In this document: positions 8,392 through 31,958 of the stretch, piece by piece | How the letters are laid out: every line of letters starts with the position of its first letter | Position numbering within the stretch: the stretch's first letter is position 1 | Source of the DNA: a virus | Length of the DNA: 43,188 bases | Virus genome (UHGV): UHGV-1381253 | Strand: one strand, 5' to 3' | The notes under the pieces: model-generated | The model's database searches: none | Seen by the model: the letters and a program-made list of their open reading frames with translations, nothing else | What the model was told of the DNA's origin: nothing | Translations under genes and position numbers: made by a program

Positions 8392-10164
8392 TTAGTATCC
8401 AAAACCAAACTCACCACTATCTAGTAAGTCTTGCAATGTTGGTGCGTCATAATCGTGATATTGAGCGTCACTCATGGCATTTATTATGGCGTCAAGTGAG
8501 TCAATTTTATTCCTGTTTATTTGCTTATCAATTGCAACGCTATCATTGTATTCTTTAATCATTGCATTGTATGCTGCACGATTCAATAAAGGGTTATTGG
8601 TGTGCATTACTTCACCTCTACGAATTAACTCACGCAGGGCTCTGGTTGGTGAAGATAAATAGTTAATTTTCTGTGGTACTTCAATTAGTTTTTTAGGGTA
8701 GGTTTTACTTAGATTAATCAAAGCCTTATCCATCATAAATGGATCATAATAAATACCAACCAATTGTAAGTCATTATAATCTATGAAATCACGTATCCAA
8801 TCACACATTTCTTCTGTATCAATTAAGCCATCTTCACGTTGTGAGATGTGAATGAGGTTCATTGCCTCATACTGTCTATAGGGTATTTTATCAATTGATT
8901 GTTTATGGTCTATACCTCCAACTGAAGACACAAAACCATGTGTATCTAATAATAGTTTGTGTTCTTCTTCTATTGGGATAATCCATGAAACGGCTGTCAT
9001 ATCTGATGTTCTTGCTAAGTCAATGCCAATATATACTTTTCTACCCTTAATATTATAATGATTGGGTGCTTTGACGGAATCCCACTCTTCTTTGGTTACA
9101 AAACTATCTTTAGATGATTGTACCCAAAAATTCATTTCTTTCGTTAACCAACCTGATAAATCCATTTTACCCTTGTATTCATCAAGTGAGTTGCGTTTAT
9201 GTTCCATCATTGAGTCGTATGCTTCTGGTATTTCAAACAGTGGGTTTGATTTAATCCAATTTTCTTCGTCATCTACTTCTGATAGACTATCCATTTCCCA
9301 GCAAAGAGCCAAATAAGCGTCACCTTTAACCTCTTCATTAAGTAATTTTTCAACGAATGGATATTCTACAGAGTGCATAGGCCCAGTTAGGTTTTTAGTA
9401 GTTGTTGAAATTATTAGTATTAATCCCTCTAATTGTTGAGATTGAGAGGATTCTAATACTTGAATAATTGCGTCATCTTTAGCTTCACCATATTCATCTA
9501 AAATACCGCATAATACATCTAGTCCATCAAGTGTATCAGCGTCACTTGATAGTGGTTTTACTGTTGATTCATCACTAGCTTCAATATCATATCTACGAAC
9601 AGTTGTTCTTTTTTTAACTTCTTTTGACACACTACGTAACGCAGTTAGCTGTGATTTGAGCATTCTGAAAACGATTCCTGCTTGCTCTTTTGTGTTTGCT
9701 GCTGCAACAACTTGACGACTGGCTGCTGGATTCTTACCAAACAAAAACTCATATAGTGCTATCCCTGAAACCAGTAACGACTTACCATTTTTACGTGCTA
9801 GTGAGATGTATGCTTTTCTAAAGCGTCTAGTATTATCTTTCTTTTTACGCCATCCATAGAGTAACCCAACAATAAATTTCTGAAAGTGGGCTAGTGTTGT
9901 GGTTTTGCGAGACTTAGGATCTGGAAGCATTTCAAGAAATCTAACTGGCGGTATTGCTTCCTCTGCCCTATAAATATATGGATATTTAGGGTCTTTTGAG
10001 CGTTCAATATCCTTCTGATGTCTTTCAATGGCTTTCTGTATTTTTTTACCAACTTTGATTTTAACTTTAATCGGTTTATAATAATCATCTTCTACTATAT
10101 ATTTACGTCCTTCAATCCATCCTGTTTCAATCAGATTGATATAATCTTGTACAAAGTCTTCCAT
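8392..10164 (-). CDS. terL: Terminase large subunit
   Basis: 590 aa. Walker A RKNGKS with the N-terminal ATPase domain, and a C-terminal nuclease region. Confidence 0.9.
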   Translation of the reverse strand: MEDFVQDYINLIETGWIEGRKYIVEDDYYKPIKVKIKVGKKIQKAIERHQKDIERSKDPKYPYIYRAEEAIPPVRFLEMLPDPKSRKTTTLAHFQKFIVGLLYGWRKKKDNTRRFRKAYISLARKNGKSLLVSGIALYEFLFGKNPAASRQVVAAANTKEQAGIVFRMLKSQLTALRSVSKEVKKRTTVRRYDIEASDESTVKPLSSDADTLDGLDVLCGILDEYGEAKDDAIIQVLESSQSQQLEGLILIISTTTKNLTGPMHSVEYPFVEKLLNEEVKGDAYLALCWEMDSLSEVDDEENWIKSNPLFEIPEAYDSMMEHKRNSLDEYKGKMDLSGWLTKEMNFWVQSSKDSFVTKEEWDSVKAPNHYNIKGRKVYIGIDLARTSDMTAVSWIIPIEEEHKLLLDTHGFVSSVGGIDHKQSIDKIPYRQYEAMNLIHISQREDGLIDTEEMCDWIRDFIDYNDLQLVGIYYDPFMMDKALINLSKTYPKKLIEVPQKINYLSSPTRALRELIRRGEVMHTNNPLLNRAAYNAMIKEYNDSVAIDKQINRNKIDSLDAIINAMSDAQYHDYDAPTLQDLLDSGEFGFGY

Positions 10165-12091: not shown

Positions 12092-12556
12092 TTATCCTTC
12101 AAACATTTTTGCGAATGGGTCAAGTACCTCTTTTTCTTTCTCTGCTGGAAGAATAATCTTCATTCTTGAATTGATTGTTAATCCCAGGTCATTGGTTGCC
12201 GTTTTAAGCTCTTTTGAATAGGAGTTCATGGCATTAACCCAAGGGTTTGCTTTACCTGTCTCAGGATCAATTGCGCCCATCTGTGCTACCTTCTCTACTG
12301 CTTCAGCGTATAGATAATTATAGTTACAATATCTAATGACTGTATTCACATCTAACTCACTAATAGGCAAGTCTCCTACATATGCTCCAATGCGATCCCA
12401 TTCATTAAAGGCTTGTGGCAATAAACCTGGTGGATAAAAACTGAAGTCTAGCTTCTCATAATTGTAAAGTACTTCTTCCTCCTTCTCACGCTCTTCTCGT
12501 TGCTGAGTGGTCAAGTTACCACTTTGAGCGTTTAATAATTTCCGTGGTCTTGCCAT
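12092..12556 (-). CDS. terS: Terminase small subunit (P27-family-like)
   Basis: 154 aa, immediately upstream of the packaging genes. N-terminal basic region and a typical TerS size. An HNH endonuclease and candidate cos region lie upstream. Confidence 0.7.
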   Translation of the reverse strand: MARPRKLLNAQSGNLTTQQREEREKEEEVLYNYEKLDFSFYPPGLLPQAFNEWDRIGAYVGDLPISELDVNTVIRYCNYNYLYAEAVEKVAQMGAIDPETGKANPWVNAMNSYSKELKTATNDLGLTINSRMKIILPAEKEKEVLDPFAKMFEG

Positions 12557-13035: not shown

Positions 13036-13100
13036 TTATTCTACCTCCCTTACTTTATTGTTAAGTCAAAAGCTAACTCCCTTATATAGCTTTATTATAT

Positions 13101-13137
13101 CATATAAAAAGAACCCTGTGTAGAGAAACCAGGGTTC
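13101..13137 (-). terminator. Rho-independent terminator on the minus strand
   Basis: Stem gaaccctg/cagggttc (8 bp) with an 11-nt loop. Followed on the minus strand by tttttatatg. Confidence 0.5.
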
Positions 13138-13140
13138 AAT

Positions 13141-13393
13141 GGTGTCTAATGGGGGATAAATCATATTAGGGAAATAACATACTATATATAGTATGAGTCC
13201 TTTATTTTCAATACAAGAAACCAGTTTTAAATCACGTTTACGAGGGGAAAAGGGTGTTTTTGAAAGTTCATTTTTAGAATTTCGTGCGAAGAAGAGGGGG
13301 CAGCGATTAATTCGTTATAAAAAGGCGGGCGGGTAAAAACATTTTGGGTCTCCCTAAAATAATTTTGGCTGCGTGGCTGTTGATATGACGCTG
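13141..13393. other. Candidate cos / packaging-recognition region
   Basis: Non-coding stretch between the HNH endonuclease and the terS-proximal genes. GC-rich runs: gagggggcagcg, aaaggcgggcgggtaaaaac, gggtctccc. Perfect 18-bp palindrome catactatatatagtatg at 13178-13195. The HNH-cos-TerS arrangement is typical of cos phages. Confidence 0.2.
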
Positions 13394-13777: not shown

Positions 13778-13820
13778 GGTGTTGCTCCTTCCGTCTATTG
13801 TATAGAAGAAAAGACTACTA

Positions 13821-14030
13821 TTATTTAGTAGTCTTCTTTGTATTCATACTCTTGTTAGCTTTATCTAATAAGTCTAAGTGAGTTGTGTCTTGTAACGGTT
13901 TGACTGACTCAGGTTCTGGTAATGGATCAGGTACCTTTAAGCGTTTATGTTTGGTACAGTATTGTGCTGGTAGCTTAACTGTTTCGTTACATCCTTCGTG
14001 GTTGCAAAACATGTATGGCAAAAGAACCAC
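13821..14030 (-). CDS. Hypothetical zinc-ribbon protein (69 aa)
   Basis: N-terminal CNHEGCNETVKLPAQYCTKH parallels the N-terminal motif of the HNH protein. Confidence 0.45.
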   Translation of the reverse strand: MVLLPYMFCNHEGCNETVKLPAQYCTKHKRLKVPDPLPEPESVKPLQDTTHLDLLDKANKSMNTKKTTK

Positions 14031-14236: not shown

Positions 14237-14384
14237 TACTTAAGTCCTCCAACCTATTCCCAAGATATAGTAAGGCTTCATTAATATCATAGGTGCGTAT
14301 TCCTTGTTGATAACTATCATTAACTTTTTGGTCAATACAATACATACCAGTTTCTTCATCTAACGTGATTTCAATCTTTTTCAT
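14202..14384 (-). CDS. Hypothetical protein (60 aa)
   Basis: ORF with an RBS-like sequence upstream. It overlaps its neighbours in the cluster. Confidence 0.35.
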   Translation of the reverse strand: MKKIEITLDEETGMYCIDQKVNDSYQQGIRTYDINEALLYLGNRLEDLSNEDRQTTTSTK

Positions 14385-14584
14385 TTACCCTTACCTCCTA
14401 ATAATAACCAGCTCCACACGATAACTAGTTGTGCGATTGCAAAACCCCAATCTCCTTGTTGGAATAATTCATATGGTAACTTCATGCCTAAATAGATAGC
14501 AATGTAACCGAAACCAATGATACTTATTACAAGTAGTAAGATACTAAGTGCAAGTGTTAATAGATCAATAAGATTATCTTTCAT
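14381..14584 (-). CDS. Hypothetical membrane protein (67 aa)
   Basis: GAGGAGGAGA RBS and two hydrophobic helices. First leftward gene after the control region. Confidence 0.45.
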   Translation of the reverse strand: MKDNLIDLLTLALSILLLVISIIGFGYIAIYLGMKLPYELFQQGDWGFAIAQLVIVWSWLLLGGKGK

Positions 14585-15058
14585 TATATCTCCTCCTCTT
14601 TGTTTCTATTATATCATAGATGAGGGATACTGTGTGAGTTAAGTAAGCCAGTTATTAATGACAAAAAGTCAGCCTAAAATGGTCATTTTGTCACTAAATC
14701 GCTTGTTTTTGTCAGCGTTTTGTCATTAATTTTGACACCTAAAAACGCTGTAAACCTTGATAAATCTACATTCTTATTTTTATAATGACAAAATGACAAA
14801 ATATTATATATATAAAAAAATAAATTGTAATACTACATTATAATGTAGTAACATAGATATATGGGTTGGAATAAATTATTTTTTGTCATTGCGTCATTTT
14901 GCTAAAACTGGTCTCATAAACGTTGATATAATAGTATTCTTGTTGTAAAAACTAGTGACAAAATTAATGTCACTGTTTTGTCACTAGTTGAATTAAATAG
15001 TTGACAGTTACCTCAATAGATGATAAAATTGGTTTATACATAAGAAGGAGGAATTAAC
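14585..15058. promoter_or_regulatory. Divergent control region with about 10 copies of TGACAAAA/TTTTGTCA iterons and a 20-bp perfect palindrome. Candidate operator array and/or replication origin.
   Basis: Motifs at about 14659, 14687, 14705, 14718, 14731, 14785-14802 (tandem atgacaaaatgacaaaat), 14881-14900 and 14954-14990 (agtgacaaaattaatgtcactgttttgtcact). Palindrome tactacattataatgtagta at 14831-14850. Very AT-rich. Confidence 0.5.
15001..15029 (+). promoter_or_regulatory. Early rightward promoter TTGACA-17-TAAAAT with an extended TG
   Basis: ttgaca gttacctcaatagatga taaaat, followed by the conserved leader cataagaaggagg and an ATG at 15059. Confidence 0.6.
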
Positions 15059-15343
15059 ATGGTTTTCAATATAATTGAGTTCAGTAATTATCAAGTAACT
15101 AAAGGAGGTATTGTATATAATAGATACAAAAAACCTACTAAACGGAAATGGGTTGGTAATAACATATACACAAAAATATACGATATTAATAATAAACAGC
15201 GCCTGGCAAGAGTTGATAAATTAGTCTATCAGACGTATGTACAAAATCCACCTTATGACTACGAATTAGAACATATTGATGGTGATGAGGCTAATTGTAA
15301 ATTAGAGAATTTAAAGTATATACCACTTAATAAGGAGGACTAA
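15059..15343 (+). CDS. NUMOD4 / HNH_3-type homing endonuclease-like protein (short, 94 aa)
   Basis: EFSNYQVTKGGIVYN matches NUMOD4. ELEHIDGDEANCKLENLKYI matches HNH_3. It lacks a C-terminal DNA-binding extension. Confidence 0.55.
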   Translation: MVFNIIEFSNYQVTKGGIVYNRYKKPTKRKWVGNNIYTKIYDINNKQRLARVDKLVYQTYVQNPPYDYELEHIDGDEANCKLENLKYIPLNKED

Positions 15344-15639: not shown

Positions 15640-15668
15640 TTGACACTGGTTTCCACACATGCTATACT
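15640..15668 (+). promoter_or_regulatory. Promoter TTGACA-17-TATACT with the -35 inside an inverted repeat (aaccagt tgac actggtt)
   Basis: ttgaca ctggtttccacacatgc tatact, then the leader tagttcataagataaagaggaggaag. Confidence 0.55.
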
Positions 15669-17699: not shown

Positions 17700-19286
17700 A
17701 TGAATGAATTAACGAAAATAGACTATTCAGCACCTGATGAAGAGTTATTACCTGTTTCAAATAAACACTTTCCAAGTGAGGAGTTTGTGGACTTCAATTC
17801 AGAACTAGGACGAATGTACTACGGAGGTAAAGATGGCACGCAGCCAAAGTTTGAGATTCAACAAGAATTGTTTATTGATAAATTTAATCAGTTAGCCTAT
17901 GTGTATGCACACCCTAACTTAAATGCACCATATGTGTACAATGCAGACACTCGTATCTGGTCTGAGGTAAATCTAGGTAGTTACAAATATGCGGACTGGT
18001 ACTTTGAGAACATTCTAGCGCCAAAATTCATACCACAATTCAGAAATCCAGAATTTGGGAATGAAATTCGTAAAGAAATGAAGAAGTTAGCTCCTGAGTT
18101 GGCTAATCGCTCCATGACACGTGGGGAACATGCACCATTAGGTGACAATCCTAATCCAAATATTATTGCCTTTGAGAATGGCACATATGACTTTAAAACC
18201 AATAATATTCGTGAGACCAGATTAGAGGACTACCACACACTGCAATTACCATATCCATTAATTAAGACAGATGAAACAGATGAACTATTGGCTAAACAAT
18301 GGATTGACTATCTATTGAAAGATCAAGCACAGACATTATATGAATATATTGGTTATATGTATTATAGAGAATACAAATATCAATCAATCTTATATTTATT
18401 AGGTAATGGCTCAAATGGTAAATCTTACGTAGGTGGTTTTATCATGAATAAGTTAATCGGTTTCAAAAACAGTTCAGCAGTTGGTCTAGACAGCTTAGCA
18501 GATAAAAACAATCGTTTTGATAAAGCTTCATTACACCATAAATTATTGAACTTTGAAGCTGATTCTAGTGCAAACTTTGTTAAGGGTACTGAAACACTAA
18601 AAAAGCTTTCAGGAGGTCTTGACGCCGTTCATGCTGAGAAAAAGGGTAAAGACGCATTTAGCTTTACCAACTATGCGAAATTGATGTTCTCAATGAATGA
18701 ATTACCAGCCTTTAATGATCGCACCAATGGATGGTATAGACGGATTTTGATATTAAATTTCAATACCAATCTTGATACACCAGAAGCACGTGAACGCATT
18801 AATGAATTCAACAAACAACGTGAGGCACGTGAATCAAAAGAACAACTTGGCAAATTTGCATGGTTCTGTATTCAGCAATTCAAAAAGATTTTAGACGCTG
18901 GTACAAATGGTGAAAACCCATTCACAGAGACAGAAGATATGATTGCGTTCAAGAAAGCTTATATTGAATCAAATGATCCATCCAAAGAGTTTTTGAGTGA
19001 AGTACCTGTGATTGTGGAAGATGCAGAAGGTACTGTTAACCTAACACTACTAAAAAATATCTTTAATGTGTACACAAAAGAGAACAATATAAACAAATCA
19101 ATGAACTGGCGTACCATGAAAGAATTGCTGCTGAAGCAAGGGTTTGAAGAAAAACGCACCAGTAAAGCACGTGTACTGACTGGCCTAAAAATTGCACGTA
19201 ACGGAGACAATGAATCAATCAAACCATATCTGATGAATGCACTAGCAGGAACAGAGTATGTAAACATTTTCAATGATGTACAATAG
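17700..19286 (+). CDS. SF3 helicase of the D5 / P4-primase C-terminal family (replicative helicase)
   Basis: Walker A LLGNGSNGKS. A Walker B-like region and a D5_N-like middle region. 528 aa. Confidence 0.75.
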   Translation: MNELTKIDYSAPDEELLPVSNKHFPSEEFVDFNSELGRMYYGGKDGTQPKFEIQQELFIDKFNQLAYVYAHPNLNAPYVYNADTRIWSEVNLGSYKYADWYFENILAPKFIPQFRNPEFGNEIRKEMKKLAPELANRSMTRGEHAPLGDNPNPNIIAFENGTYDFKTNNIRETRLEDYHTLQLPYPLIKTDETDELLAKQWIDYLLKDQAQTLYEYIGYMYYREYKYQSILYLLGNGSNGKSYVGGFIMNKLIGFKNSSAVGLDSLADKNNRFDKASLHHKLLNFEADSSANFVKGTETLKKLSGGLDAVHAEKKGKDAFSFTNYAKLMFSMNELPAFNDRTNGWYRRILILNFNTNLDTPEARERINEFNKQREARESKEQLGKFAWFCIQQFKKILDAGTNGENPFTETEDMIAFKKAYIESNDPSKEFLSEVPVIVEDAEGTVNLTLLKNIFNVYTKENNINKSMNWRTMKELLLKQGFEEKRTSKARVLTGLKIARNGDNESIKPYLMNALAGTEYVNIFNDVQ

Positions 19287-22414: not shown

Positions 22415-23155
22415 ATGAAAGAATTAAGACTAAAGACAAACGGCAAAGCACCACTAGTGGCTGGAGCTTTTGATGGAGAAAATATTAAATTGATTCAAGC
22501 ATGGGTGCAAGAAGGAGGTAACGTTGGTACACTTACAGGATCAGCTAGTGGTATTGCAGTCATTGACATTGATAATCATAATGGAGTAGATGGTCTTGGC
22601 AACTTAAAAGATTTTTTAGAAATGTATGACATTACATTACCTAAGACTAAAGTAGTTAAGACTCCAAGTGGTGGATTACACTACTACTTTAAACTTGATG
22701 AGAAATATAATGACACACAGTTTATTCAAAATCATCCGCAACTAAAAGGGGTTGACTTCCAAACTCATGGCCGCTACGTTGTTGCACCACCTAGTCAAAT
22801 TGATGGCAAATACTATGAGGTAGTACGTGATGTTGAATTAGCAGAACTACCTGATAAATGGTTAGAGATGTTCACAGATAAAACGATTACAGCAAAGAAT
22901 AAGAAGAGAGAGAGAAAGTGGACAGCAACCTTATTAGGTGATATAATTGCAGGTAGTGGAGAGGGAGGAAGAAACATCTGGCTAACCACTCAAATTGGTA
23001 AATTATTTGCAACTGGCTTAAATCACGACGAAGTGCGAGTATGGGCTCTATACGTAAACCAAATCGGATGTAATCCACCTTTGTCAGAAAATGAAGTACT
23101 ACAAACATATGAAAGTGTACGTAAGCGTGAGTTGCGTAGAATGGAGGAAGACTAA
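22415..23155 (+). CDS. Primase-polymerase (PrimPol domain protein)
   Basis: VIDIDNHNG...LPKTKVVKTPSGGLHYYFK...GRYVVAPPS matches the Prim-Pol catalytic motifs. Confidence 0.75.
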   Translation: MKELRLKTNGKAPLVAGAFDGENIKLIQAWVQEGGNVGTLTGSASGIAVIDIDNHNGVDGLGNLKDFLEMYDITLPKTKVVKTPSGGLHYYFKLDEKYNDTQFIQNHPQLKGVDFQTHGRYVVAPPSQIDGKYYEVVRDVELAELPDKWLEMFTDKTITAKNKKRERKWTATLLGDIIAGSGEGGRNIWLTTQIGKLFATGLNHDEVRVWALYVNQIGCNPPLSENEVLQTYESVRKRELRRMEED

Positions 23156-29678: not shown

Positions 29679-31958
29679 ATGAAAAACATAGCAGAATTCC
29701 AGGGTGCTGAAAAACTAGCATCTAAACTGTTAGAAATATTTTCTGCATTAGCAGGTAATGGAAAAAGTTTTGATCCTATGACGGAAGGAGTTCATCAAGT
29801 AGTAGTTATCAAAGCAGATGAACGTTTAAGCGCTAAAGGTAAAGAAATGAAAGAGATTAAAGTACGTAGCACAAATGATGGACGTGATACTACTTTTTAT
29901 ATTATGAAGTTTCGCAAACAAGATTGGAAAACGTGGGAAAAGATAGAAGTTGGACAGCAACTGATTATCACTCTAAAATACAGTAATGGTTTCCCTAACG
30001 TAACAATTAACCAAAAAGGAGGAGTTGTTGATAACTTACCTGAGAAACCAAACAAAGCATTGACGAATCAAACAATTTATATTTATGATATTGAAGTATT
30101 TAAAAAAGATAACTTATTTGTCTTTAGAGATTACTTCACTAAAGAATGGACAGTTATTCATAATGATTTAGATGCGTTACGCAAATTCTATCTAGCGAAT
30201 AGAGATTCCTTGTTTGTAGGTTACAACTCACACTCATATGACTCAAATGTCATGCGTGCTTATTTACAAGGCAAAAACCCGTTTCATGTGTCAAAAGCAA
30301 TCATTGAAAGTGATGATAGATCATTAGCATATAAAATGTTTGATACTAATAAAACTCCACTTTTTGGAATGGATTTGTATCAAGACAATAGAGGTTTTAG
30401 TCTGAAAGAACATAGCGCTTTCATGGGTATTAATATTAAAGAAACTGAGGTAGATTTTGATTTAGATAGAGAGCTAACTGAAGAAGAGCAGGTGTTGAAT
30501 GAACTATACTGTAAAAACGACGTCTTAGCTACTGAGAAACGTTTTGAACAAAACATAGGGATGCTAGTAGCTAAGGCTGCAATTGCATTATACTTTGGTT
30601 TAGATAAAATGGCTCTATCAATGACAAACGCAAACTTGACTGCTGAACTATTAGGGGCTGAGAAAACACCTGATAGAGGTGATGAACTAGATAAGTATGA
30701 ACTGCCAGAAGGATTCAAAATTGAGTCAGAGACCATTCGTCAGGCATTTATGACAGATGACTTTGAAGCGAATGATAAAGGTCATGCTAGTATTTCATTA
30801 GATGTTCCTCGTAGAGACGTTACAGAGGTTTTAGGGGTAGGTGGTATACATGGGGCTAAGGAATCATTTATTCATGTAGGTAACTTCCATGCACGTGACG
30901 TGGGTTCACTTTATCCTAATACAATGGTTTTATTTGACTACTTATCAAGAAACATCCAAGAAGACAAACGTCATATTTATCAAATGCTACTTGATGAACG
31001 TATGGAAGCTAAGTATTCTAATAAAGAATTTACTGAAATTAAAGGCGTAAAAATTCCAACCAAGCTATTAATTAATGGCTATAAACTACCATTAAATACT
31101 AAGTATGGTGCAATGGGTGCTGAGTTTAACAAATTGTATGATCCACGCATGCGACTACTTGTTTGTATCACAGGTCAAATGGCAATGTGGGATTTACTAG
31201 AAAAGATTGAAGACCATGCTACTATTATTCAATCAAACACAGATGCTCACTATTACATTCCATTTAGTGAAGAAGATGAAAAAGCCATTGATGATATCGC
31301 AGATGATTGGATGAAACGAACAGGGTACACGTTAGATGATGATCCTTTTAAAGCTATTTTCCAGAAGGACGTCAATAATTACTTGGCAGTTACATCAGAC
31401 GGCAAAGTGAAGGTTAAAGGTGCTATTGGTCTAACAAAGGGATTGAAAGTATCTAAAGCAATTGTATCAAATGCCTTTATAAACTATGTAGTTGCTGGGA
31501 AAGATTATAAAGAGTTCATCAATGAATGTGATGAACTACGTCAATTCCAAATGATTACTAAAACTGGATGGACTTTTGATGATACTATTGTACGTGATGT
31601 TTATGGTAATGAACGCAAAGCACAAAAAGTGAATCGTACATTTGCAATAAAAGACCCTAACAAAGCTGTTGAAATATTTAAAGTAAAACGTGGAGCTGTT
31701 GTTGAAGAGGAAGGTACTACAATTATTGGCGATGATTCTTATACTAAAGGCTTGCCTAATGCACCTGAGTATTATGCCATTGACAATGAAGCAATTGGTG
31801 AAGGATGGATAACTATTGATGATATTGAAAAAGAGTACTATATAAACCAGGTAGAGGACCTGCTAGTACTATGGTTTGGTACTAACTGGAAAGAACGGAT
31901 TGAACAAGCACATAGTCAAATGAAAGAATTTCCAGAAGTTAAAAATTATATTGATTAA
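29679..31958 (+). CDS. Family B DNA polymerase with a 3-prime to 5-prime proofreading exonuclease domain
   Basis: Exo I IYIYDIEVF. Exo II VGYNSHSYD. Exo III YCKNDV. Pol motif A DVGSLYPNTM. Motif B KLPLNTKYGAMG. Motif C SNTDAHYY. Confidence 0.85.
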   Translation: MKNIAEFQGAEKLASKLLEIFSALAGNGKSFDPMTEGVHQVVVIKADERLSAKGKEMKEIKVRSTNDGRDTTFYIMKFRKQDWKTWEKIEVGQQLIITLKYSNGFPNVTINQKGGVVDNLPEKPNKALTNQTIYIYDIEVFKKDNLFVFRDYFTKEWTVIHNDLDALRKFYLANRDSLFVGYNSHSYDSNVMRAYLQGKNPFHVSKAIIESDDRSLAYKMFDTNKTPLFGMDLYQDNRGFSLKEHSAFMGINIKETEVDFDLDRELTEEEQVLNELYCKNDVLATEKRFEQNIGMLVAKAAIALYFGLDKMALSMTNANLTAELLGAEKTPDRGDELDKYELPEGFKIESETIRQAFMTDDFEANDKGHASISLDVPRRDVTEVLGVGGIHGAKESFIHVGNFHARDVGSLYPNTMVLFDYLSRNIQEDKRHIYQMLLDERMEAKYSNKEFTEIKGVKIPTKLLINGYKLPLNTKYGAMGAEFNKLYDPRMRLLVCITGQMAMWDLLEKIEDHATIIQSNTDAHYYIPFSEEDEKAIDDIADDWMKRTGYTLDDDPFKAIFQKDVNNYLAVTSDGKVKVKGAIGLTKGLKVSKAIVSNAFINYVVAGKDYKEFINECDELRQFQMITKTGWTFDDTIVRDVYGNERKAQKVNRTFAIKDPNKAVEIFKVKRGAVVEEEGTTIIGDDSYTKGLPNAPEYYAIDNEAIGEGWITIDDIEKEYYINQVEDLLVLWFGTNWKERIEQAHSQMKEFPEVKNYID

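Follow-up and report, generated by a model that had tools for sequence, protein, structure and literature searches.

A conserved repeat array in the divergent early-promoter region of an Enterococcus faecium siphophage is a candidate replication origin

Results

An array of octamer repeats in a divergent intergenic region

The DNA analyzed in this study (the window; 43,188 bases of UHGV virus genome UHGV-1381253) belongs to a lytic-type Enterococcus faecium siphophage of the IME-EFm5/SSBHU/dArtagnan clade. The element in question is the intergenic gap at positions 14585-15058, which harbors an array of short repeats and is considered here as a candidate replication origin. The gap is 474 bp long, has a G+C content of 27%, and contains no credible open reading frame (ORF), in agreement with a previous reading of the window made before any comparison (the sequence-only reading), which had described an AT-rich gap of this size. 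It is flanked by a leftward ORF encoding a membrane-like protein of 67 residues (14381-14584) and by a rightward ORF encoding an HNH-like protein of 94 residues (15059-15343).

The octamer TGACAAAA is present in nine exact copies within 325 bp of the gap (14659-14983) versus three in the remaining 42.7 kb of the window. The copies start at positions 14659, 14786, 14794, and 14956 on the plus strand and at positions 14686, 14707, 14718, 14881, and 14976 on the minus strand. Shuffling of the whole window gave a mean of 4.8 copies, corresponding to approximately 0.05 copy expected per 474 bp. The gap is the sole repeat cluster of the window, the densest 8-mer per 400 bp reaching nine copies in the gap and at most three anywhere else. 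The RTGAC core of the motif was found 11 times in the gap versus 1.2 expected, and the consensus deduced from the oriented copies is t-A-(A/G)-TGACAAAA. The array is extended by a copy with one mismatch (TGTCAAAA, minus strand, 14730) and by partial copies, such as GTCATTTTG at 14893-14901. The sequence-only reading had counted at least ten motifs, a number that is reached only if the one-mismatch copy or the partial copies are included.

The leftmost exact copy (14659-14666, plus strand) is followed by a run of four copies sharing the same orientation (14686-14737, minus strand; TTTTGTCA on the plus strand), the last of which is the one-mismatch variant TTTTGACA. The start-to-start spacing within this run is 21, 11, and 12 bp, indicating that the four copies share one face of the helix. 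A tandem pair, TGACAAAATGACAAAA (14786-14801, plus strand), which the sequence-only reading had named as ATGACAAAATGACAAAAT (14785-14802), abuts from the left an AT-rich core (14785-14845; 90-93% A+T in 40-bp windows) that is a candidate DNA-unwinding element. The right edge of the core is occupied by the perfect 20-bp palindrome TACTACATTATAATGTAGTA (14831-14850), which consists of two inverted ACTACATTA units. The first copies encountered to the right of the core (14881-14901, minus strand) are TTTTGTCA (14881-14888) and the partial copy GTCATTTTG. They are followed by an inverted repeat (14950-14989) with perfect 14-nt arms, AACTAGTGACAAAA (14950-14963) and TTTTGTCACTAGTT (14976-14989), which contain the exact copies at 14956 and 14976, respectively. 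The tandem, the palindrome, and the inverted pair had all been recognized previously, the latter in a shorter form. Overall, seven copies are located to the left of the core and four to five to its right. The innermost copies are opposed, with the tandem pair (14786 and 14794) on the plus strand on the left and the exact (14881) and partial (14893-14901) copies on the minus strand on the right. DnaA boxes (TTATCCACA) with up to one mismatch were not found within the gap, and a search of positions 14300-15300 against Rfam with E-values up to 1 gave no match.

Promoter-like sites are present on both sides of the array. The main rightward early promoter-like site (15001-15029, plus strand) corresponds, as previously proposed, to TTGACA and TAAAAT separated by 17 bp, and additionally contains a TG preceding the -10 element. 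It begins 12 bp after the end of the inverted repeat, and is followed by the ribosome-binding site AAGGAGG (15045-15051) and the start codon (15059) of the ORF for the 94-residue protein. On the left, an extended -10 sequence, TGATATAATAG (14605-14616, minus strand), closely precedes the ribosome-binding site from which the 67-residue protein would be translated. This element is kept in every relative, including those that contain other repeats. A second copy of the 11-mer TGATATAATAG at 14924-14934 (plus strand) may correspond to an internal extended -10 promoter directed rightward, and is preceded by a CTGGTCTC element found throughout the clade.

The repeats are conserved in close relatives

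The sequence-only reading had proposed that the motif should be compared among related phages, and the comparison came out in its favor. Conservation was assessed in a set of 15 close relatives (group A) comprising eight GenBank sequences and seven IMG/VR contigs. Each of them contains nine or ten exact copies of TGACAAAA at the same positions. In the part of the gap that can be aligned across the 15 sequences, none of the 48 motif columns is variable versus 54 of the 125 other columns (Fisher p=5e-10), indicating that the motif itself is under purifying selection. No insertion or deletion is present in the run of four copies (14686-14737) in any of the 15 relatives. For the right half of the gap, two versions can be distinguished, termed the window type and the dArtagnan type. 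The two cannot be aligned to one another, and copies of TGACAAAA are present in both. In relatives of the dArtagnan type, a different palindrome is found at the position of the palindrome of the window.

A 38-codon frame starting with TTG is present within the gap (14683-14799, minus strand), is not preceded by a ribosome-binding site, and is intact in 13 of the 13 group A sequences tested. This frame is probably not a gene, its conservation mirroring that of the DNA repeats. In one IMG/VR relative (L107), the right half of the gap contains one extra 12-bp unit, CTGTTTTGTCA(C), in comparison to the window, a case of repeat copy-number variation through duplication of one unit length.

The candidate initiator is a D5-like helicase

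The replication module located to the right of the gap begins with a gene (17700-19286, plus strand) encoding a helicase of superfamily 3 (SF3) of 528 residues, annotated as 'DNA primase' in the relatives. This protein matched the Pfam families DUF5906 (3e-20) and D5_N (7e-7). In phmmer searches against the PDB, its single relative was the primase-helicase PriRep5 of the Staphylococcus aureus pathogenicity island (SaPI) SaPI5 (7OLA, 3e-10). Comparison of the AlphaFold2 model of the protein by Foldseek also retrieved 7OLA, with a probability of 1.00 and a template modeling score of approximately 0.5 (target-normalized), and the model additionally resembles the D5-like primase-helicases of African swine fever virus and monkeypox virus. 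Residues 412-498 of the model (predicted local distance difference test, pLDDT, of approximately 77-85) display the succession of secondary-structure elements H-H-E-H-H-E-E.

The N-terminal and C-terminal domains of the helicase diverge faster than its ATPase core, which is 91-98% identical in close variants. The same trend extends to the helicases of the variant series (L161, L158, and AL3), for which identity is 71-98% for the ATPase core and 39-80% for the N-terminal and C-terminal domains. No other protein of the window is so sharply divided among the relatives as the helicase (96-99% versus 29-31% identity). Its identity reaches 96-99% in 18 GenBank phages and in 17 IMG/VR loci, where the neighboring early proteins are typically 50-90% identical. 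Alternatively, the protein is replaced by a homologue of approximately 30% identity (IME-EFm1/LG62 and 9184), an unusually all-or-nothing pattern for a mosaic clade. Homologues of the 528-residue protein are also found in 398 Streptococcus phage records.

Repeat families change with the helicase

In phages harboring a helicase 96-99% identical to that of the window (type 1), the RTGAC motif is present in 4-13 copies, versus approximately 1.3 expected. Where the helicase of a relative has diverged, the slot is occupied by repeats of another family, which likewise surround an AT-rich core. Two of these, L161 and L158, originate from metagenomes and encode intermediate helicases. In L161 (74% identity), the gap contains approximately 10 copies of ACTACAYT and no copy of TGACAAAA. 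In L158 (57% identity), 11 copies of AAAAAGTAACA are present, and with few exceptions those to the left of the core are oriented opposite to those to its right. Among phages with more distant helicases, IME-EFm1 (29% identity) contains 12 copies of GGTAC (0.5 expected) and three copies of GGGACAC, 9184 (31% identity) contains 13 copies of YTGACAA (0.1 expected), and the Efquatrovirus AL3 (32% identity) contains 15 copies of AAG(C/T)GTTACA in the equivalent gap. Opposed repeats around an AT-rich core, cleaner than in the window and with different repeat sequences, are found in L158, AL3, and IME-EFm5. Replacement of the repeat family along with the helicase would be expected if an initiator co-evolves with its iterons, and may also be in part an outcome of general divergence.

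In the regions comprising gap and helicase of IME-EFm1/LG62 (38650-41190 in L016) and of L161 (9125-11593), the variant helicase gene is separated from the gap by one small ORF, instead of 2.6 kb as in the window, and is still located downstream from it. This layout looks like that of an origin-plus-initiator module, which would be consistent with joint transfer of the two components.

Two additional elements were observed in the gaps of relatives. The palindrome unit ACTACATTA (ACTACAYT) is the dominant repeat of the L161 gap (approximately 10 copies at 9125-9573), and CTACA-N4-TGTAG is present at the same place in L165. This unit may represent a second recognition element common to the clade. 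A stem-loop, CCTTACTCTC(C/A)CAAGG, is conserved in a number of equivalent gaps (L011, L009, L005, L012, L014, L010, and L161-L163), those of group B phages (described below), IME-EFm1, and several metagenomic relatives. Its stem reaches 13 bp in IME-EFm1, and the element is absent from the window and from its closest relatives.

Comparison with SaPI-type origins

The Rep proteins of SaPIs combine the functions of initiator and helicase in a single polypeptide (PMC9371898). Their C-terminal winged helix reads 6-12 penta- or hexanucleotide iterons, which flank an AT-rich region with at least two iterons per side in opposite directions, and the proteins self-load, neither ATP nor helper proteins being needed (PMC9371898). 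The gap of the window contains repeats in a comparable number (nine exact copies, one with one mismatch, and partial copies) and of comparably short size, located on both sides of a central AT-rich region (90-93% A+T, 14785-14845). The copies next to this region are opposed, one of the two on the right being partial, and the outer copies are of mixed orientation. The phage also encodes a homologous D5-like SF3 helicase, the 528-residue protein, for which 7OLA is the closest solved relative both by sequence and by fold. The variable C-terminal domain of the helicase and the lack of DnaA boxes are further similarities.

The two systems also differ in several respects. The repeat of the window is an octamer with a pentamer core, whereas SaPI iterons are penta- or hexamers. 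The helicase of the window is not fused to a primase, the Prim-Pol being encoded by a separate gene. The window belongs to a lytic phage, whereas SaPIs are satellites. Finally, SaPI origins are located directly downstream from rep, whereas the array of the window is in a divergent promoter gap 2.6 kb upstream from the helicase gene. The element is therefore described as working like a SaPI-type origin rather than as a strict member of that family.

Discussion

We propose, with moderate confidence, that the gap at 14585-15058 contains the replication origin of the phage, which would resemble the origins of SaPI/PriRep systems and the one predicted for phage Abitsa. This origin would lie among divergent early promoters and might secondarily influence transcription. 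The sequence-only reading had considered an operator array, an iteron-type origin, or both. The origin is favored by the strict conservation of the repeats, the AT-rich core that they flank, the PriRep5-like helicase, the exchange of repeat families in phages with diverged helicases, and a precedent in the genus Efquatrovirus. The operator part of the earlier proposal fared less well in view of the comparative evidence, as discussed below. The proposal that the 528-residue helicase is itself the protein reading the repeats is more tentative, and we regard it as a plausible assignment somewhat short of an even chance.

Several observations weigh against these proposals. Our confidence is limited mainly by the coexistence of the same helicase with differing numbers of octamers. 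In a second set of phages (group B), the helicase is 96-98% identical to that of the window and exact octamers are present in three copies in Aramis and IME-EFm5, two in KEN18, one in KEN21, and none in DELF1, versus nine in group A. Only a loose RTGAC/TGACA core is common to these phages, and even this core is reduced to 4-6 copies in KEN21 and DELF1. No fixed residue difference was found between the helicases of groups A and B. The gap of dArtagnan differs from that of Aramis, two phages that share 97.8% identity over 27 kb. In contigs encoding helicases of 80-83% identity, the repeats are mixed or weak, and in more distant phages the link between repeats and helicase is confounded by overall divergence. 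The structural evidence is affected by the low mean pLDDT of the helicase model (66), in which the ATPase core is poorly modeled, and the assignment of residues 412-498 to a winged-helix-like region is probable by the order of the secondary-structure elements only. With respect to architecture, the orientation of the copies is only partly symmetric in the window (><<<>> / <><), the outer copies being mixed, and the array is not located directly downstream from the helicase gene, approximately ten small ORFs lying between the two and the stop codon of the helicase gene being followed by no noncoding space. Finally, GC skew and transcription direction switch at the same point. The skew is therefore not independent, and was set aside as evidence for an origin.

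The possibility that the exact octamer strictly co-varies with the helicase was rejected, since 0-9 copies are found at 96-98% helicase identity in the absence of any fixed residue difference. Group B phages retain units of the TGACA, TGACG, and TAGACA types around the same AT-rich core and palindrome. The presence of differing octamers in phages with the same helicase implies either that the helicase reads only the pentamer core or that another protein reads the octamer. By analogy, recognition of the pentamer alone would be consistent with the 5-6-nt iterons of SaPIs. A search for an ORF co-varying with octamer-rich versus octamer-poor gaps identified only the 38-codon frame inside the gap, the group B loci available for this comparison being partial genomes. 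The phage collection contained no intermediate of the IME-EFm1 (type 2) helicase outside the clade, which would have provided an independent test of linkage. A related idea is that the gap is a hot-swappable origin cassette whose repeat 'dialect' changes without a change in the helicase, which would involve a helicase reading only the pentamer or a second protein with an origin-recognition or regulatory role. We regard such a cassette as quite unlikely.

An alternative that is unlikely overall, and still the most serious of the competing explanations, is that the array acts only as an operator or activator array and is not an origin. A small early phage protein or a host factor would then bind TGACAAAA cooperatively, switch the divergent promoters, and time the transition from early to late expression. 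The position of the repeats between the leftward extended -10 (14605-14616) and the rightward promoters (14924-14934 and 15001-15029) is in agreement with this explanation, as are the location of the leftmost copy (14659) approximately 45-50 bp upstream of the leftward -10 and that of the inverted repeat with 14-nt arms, the center of which is approximately 66 bp upstream of where rightward transcription is expected to start, a distance typical of activators. The helical phasing of the run of four copies would suit cooperative binding, and the variation of the exact octamer among phages with the same helicase would be easier to accommodate if a different protein reads it. However, none of the repeats in the gap overlaps a -35 or -10 element, the closest copy on the right ending 18 bp upstream of the rightward -35. 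Furthermore, no DNA-binding family was detected with Pfam and PHROGs in the ORFs searched (10 early ones, the four small ones on the left, and a few neighbors), a result compatible with small regulators of novel families, and no ORF co-varies with the two types of gaps in the regions available. To our knowledge, the binding sites of the CtsR, TnrA/GlnR, CRP/FNR, and LytTR regulators do not fit the motif, and a search of the literature for reports of the octamer as a binding site was uninformative, the 2,960 papers retrieved matching mostly through primer sequences. The operator explanation also leaves unaccounted for the conserved AT-rich core with its opposed repeats, which recurs with other repeats in L158, AL3, and IME-EFm5. 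The lack of a recognizable regulator, the location of the sites outside the core promoters, and this unexplained core together weaken it.

The variation of the octamer could also be accounted for by an origin in which a small phage protein or a host protein binds the repeats and recruits the helicase. Numerous early ORFs without known function could encode such a protein, and the association of one helicase (96-98% identity, no fixed differences) with both octamer-rich and octamer-poor gaps would follow directly. This arrangement is nonetheless very unlikely, since no candidate protein co-varies with the type of gap, divergence at the two ends of the helicase (its N-terminal and C-terminal domains) parallels replacement of the repeats, and helicases of the PriRep5 type bind their own iterons directly, a loader not being needed (PMC9371898). 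The explanation to which we give the least credit, as highly improbable, is a purely structural one: phased A/T tracts would form curved or UP-element-like DNA boosting the early promoters, no sequence-specific protein being involved. The T-tracts at 14703-14707, 14716-14719, and 14728-14731 are indeed phased by 11-12 bp in a very AT-rich region. However, the part of the motif that is not A/T-only, TGAC, is invariant in all copies of all 15 relatives and the adjacent bases vary, and the copies occur in both orientations and are in some places unphased.

A similar origin has already been predicted in the neighboring genus Efquatrovirus, and the element of the window is in this respect of a known kind. 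For the phage Abitsa, an SaPI5-like origin consisting of seven 10-bp iterons around an AT-rich region was proposed together with a PriRep5-like helicase (Viruses 2026; PMC13517437). The locus is the one to which the GC skew points, and the prediction was based on sequence (PMC13517437). Abitsa and AL3 resemble the window by the division of the genome into two halves with opposite transcription and GC skew, by the PriRep5-like helicase, and by repeats (10 bp in their case) around an AT-rich region. They differ by the genus, the host species, the low identity of the helicase (only approximately 32%), and the sequence of the repeat, which is unrelated.

Similarities with other replication systems are more partial. 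In satellite phage P4, direct and inverted copies of the octamer TGTTCACC make up the ori and crr regions. They are recognized by the alpha protein, a primase-helicase of the D5/P4 family that has its own primase domain and binds the repeat through its C-terminal domain. Direct and inverted octamer copies are also found in the window, in a single cluster, whereas P4 requires two separated clusters (ori and crr). The origin of the lactococcal phage c2 is a noncoding region with early promoters, the function of which is reportedly transcription-dependent, and that of Streptococcus thermophilus phages of the Sfi21 type is a repeat-rich noncoding stretch downstream from a homologous primase-helicase gene. 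The repeat sequences of the window differ from those of both. Iteron plasmids share with the window direct repeats in helical phase beside an AT-rich unwinding element and a possible dual role in replication and promoter control. They differ from it by the RepA-type initiator, which the window lacks, by the DnaA boxes, which are lacking in the gap, and by the length of the iterons, usually 17-22 bp, the repeats of the window being much shorter.

If the gap is an origin, replication could proceed according to the following scheme. The host RNA polymerase would initiate transcription rightward from 15001-15029, leading to production of the SF3 helicase, the Prim-Pol, and the B-family polymerase. 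The helicase would recognize the (A/G)TGACA[AAA] repeats, probably by its C-terminal winged-helix-like domain, and hexamers formed on each side of the core (14785-14845) would melt it and self-load. Priming by the Prim-Pol and extension by the polymerase would result in bidirectional replication from the point at which transcription and GC skew switch. As the repeats lie 20-130 bp upstream of both divergent promoters, their occupancy may in addition tune early transcription, a dual role similar to that found in iteron plasmids.

If confirmed, the origin would be the first to be defined in this clade of E. faecium phages, which is under development for therapy against vancomycin-resistant strains. 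The fragment could be used in origin-based interference tests, in shuttle vectors, and in phage engineering, and the natural series of helicase variants and repeat families occupying one slot could serve to examine how self-loading SF3 helicases pick their origins. Current concepts would be left unchanged, the architecture being of the expected type.

Similar arrays in unrelated contigs

Viral contigs were scanned for the tandem 16-mer. The matches were mostly unrelated, and the scan yielded seven more relatives of the phage and a few unrelated arrays. In L050, 12 copies of AATGACAAAA begin 6 bp past the stop codon of a gene encoding a D5_N/DUF5906 protein of 888 residues. In L053, approximately 11 TGACA(A/G) units surround an AT-rich core right after the gene for a DUF5906 protein of 635 residues. 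In both contigs, (A)TGACA(AAA) arrays around AT-rich cores thus directly follow D5-like helicase genes, an arrangement in favor of the origin proposed for the window. The recurrence of this repeat is also a hint that distant viruses may share a winged-helix domain paired with its repeat, the pair being transferable. A C-terminal domain common to the helicase of the window and to those of L079 and L053 was not detectable by BLASTP. Arrays of TGACAAAA around AT-rich cores were also found in L117, L099, L094, L064, L062, and L104. As very many contigs were scanned, the unrelated arrays may be the result of convergence.

The repeat was very dense in some of the unrelated contigs, with 13-15 copies of TGACAAAA per 400 bp in L085 and L091 (2124-2556) and 12 in L040 (6173-6631). 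The array of L085 is located at both ends of the 11-kb contig (227-742 and 10627-11011), beside a weak match to a double-jelly-roll capsid protein below the Pfam cut-off. The array of L040 is just downstream from an 819-codon ORF, the product of which had no match in Pfam.

Gene layout and additional features of the phage

At the DNA level, the window is approximately 80-87% identical to SSBHU, vb_GEC_Ef_S_9, the KEN phages, IME-EFm5, dArtagnan, Aramis, IME-EFm1, and 9184. The sequence-only reading had placed leftward late and packaging genes on one side of the gap and rightward early genes on the other. This description is roughly right, with the reservation that the immediate left neighbors of the gap are small ORFs without function assigned by matches (four recognized, 60-69 residues), after which comes a gene for an HNH endonuclease. 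Genes for packaging and head formation are located further left, beyond the probable genome end, and comprise the gene for the small terminase subunit (12092-12556) followed by those for the large terminase subunit and the head proteins. To the right of the gap, approximately ten small ORFs without assigned function precede the replication module, which encodes the SF3 helicase, an SNF2 helicase, a Prim-Pol/PriCT_1 primase-polymerase (22415-23155, plus strand), a protein with a metallo-beta-lactamase fold, a DUF1351 protein, a B-family DNA polymerase, and a deoxynucleoside kinase. The polymerase is a protein of 759 residues (29679-31958, plus strand) identified by the annotation of the relatives, a Pfam search of its sequence giving no match.

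The noncoding region 13036-13393 matches the start of related linear records, and is therefore probably the genome end or a cos region. A role of the gap as a packaging signal is unlikely, the records of relatives starting at a place equivalent to approximately 13036-13393, more than 1.2 kb from the gap. This place is bounded by the HNH gene on one side and, on the other, by the ORF that precedes the gene for the small terminase subunit. A hairpin with a 10-bp stem (13811-13835) separates the HNH gene from the small leftward ORFs, and a terminator is annotated at the matching place in phage 9184.

Within the gap, the inverted pair of repeats can form a hairpin (14953-14975) that is followed by TTTT and was scored as terminator-like on both strands. 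The extended -10 sequence at 14924-14934 is approximately 20 bp upstream of this hairpin, and the combination of the two could produce a transcript of approximately 40 nt, act as an attenuator, or be coincidental. Beyond the gap, between the second and third rightward ORFs, the sequence TTGACACTGGT (15640-15650) is an exact match to the form of the -35 region found at the main rightward promoter of most relatives, which suggests the presence of a further early promoter.

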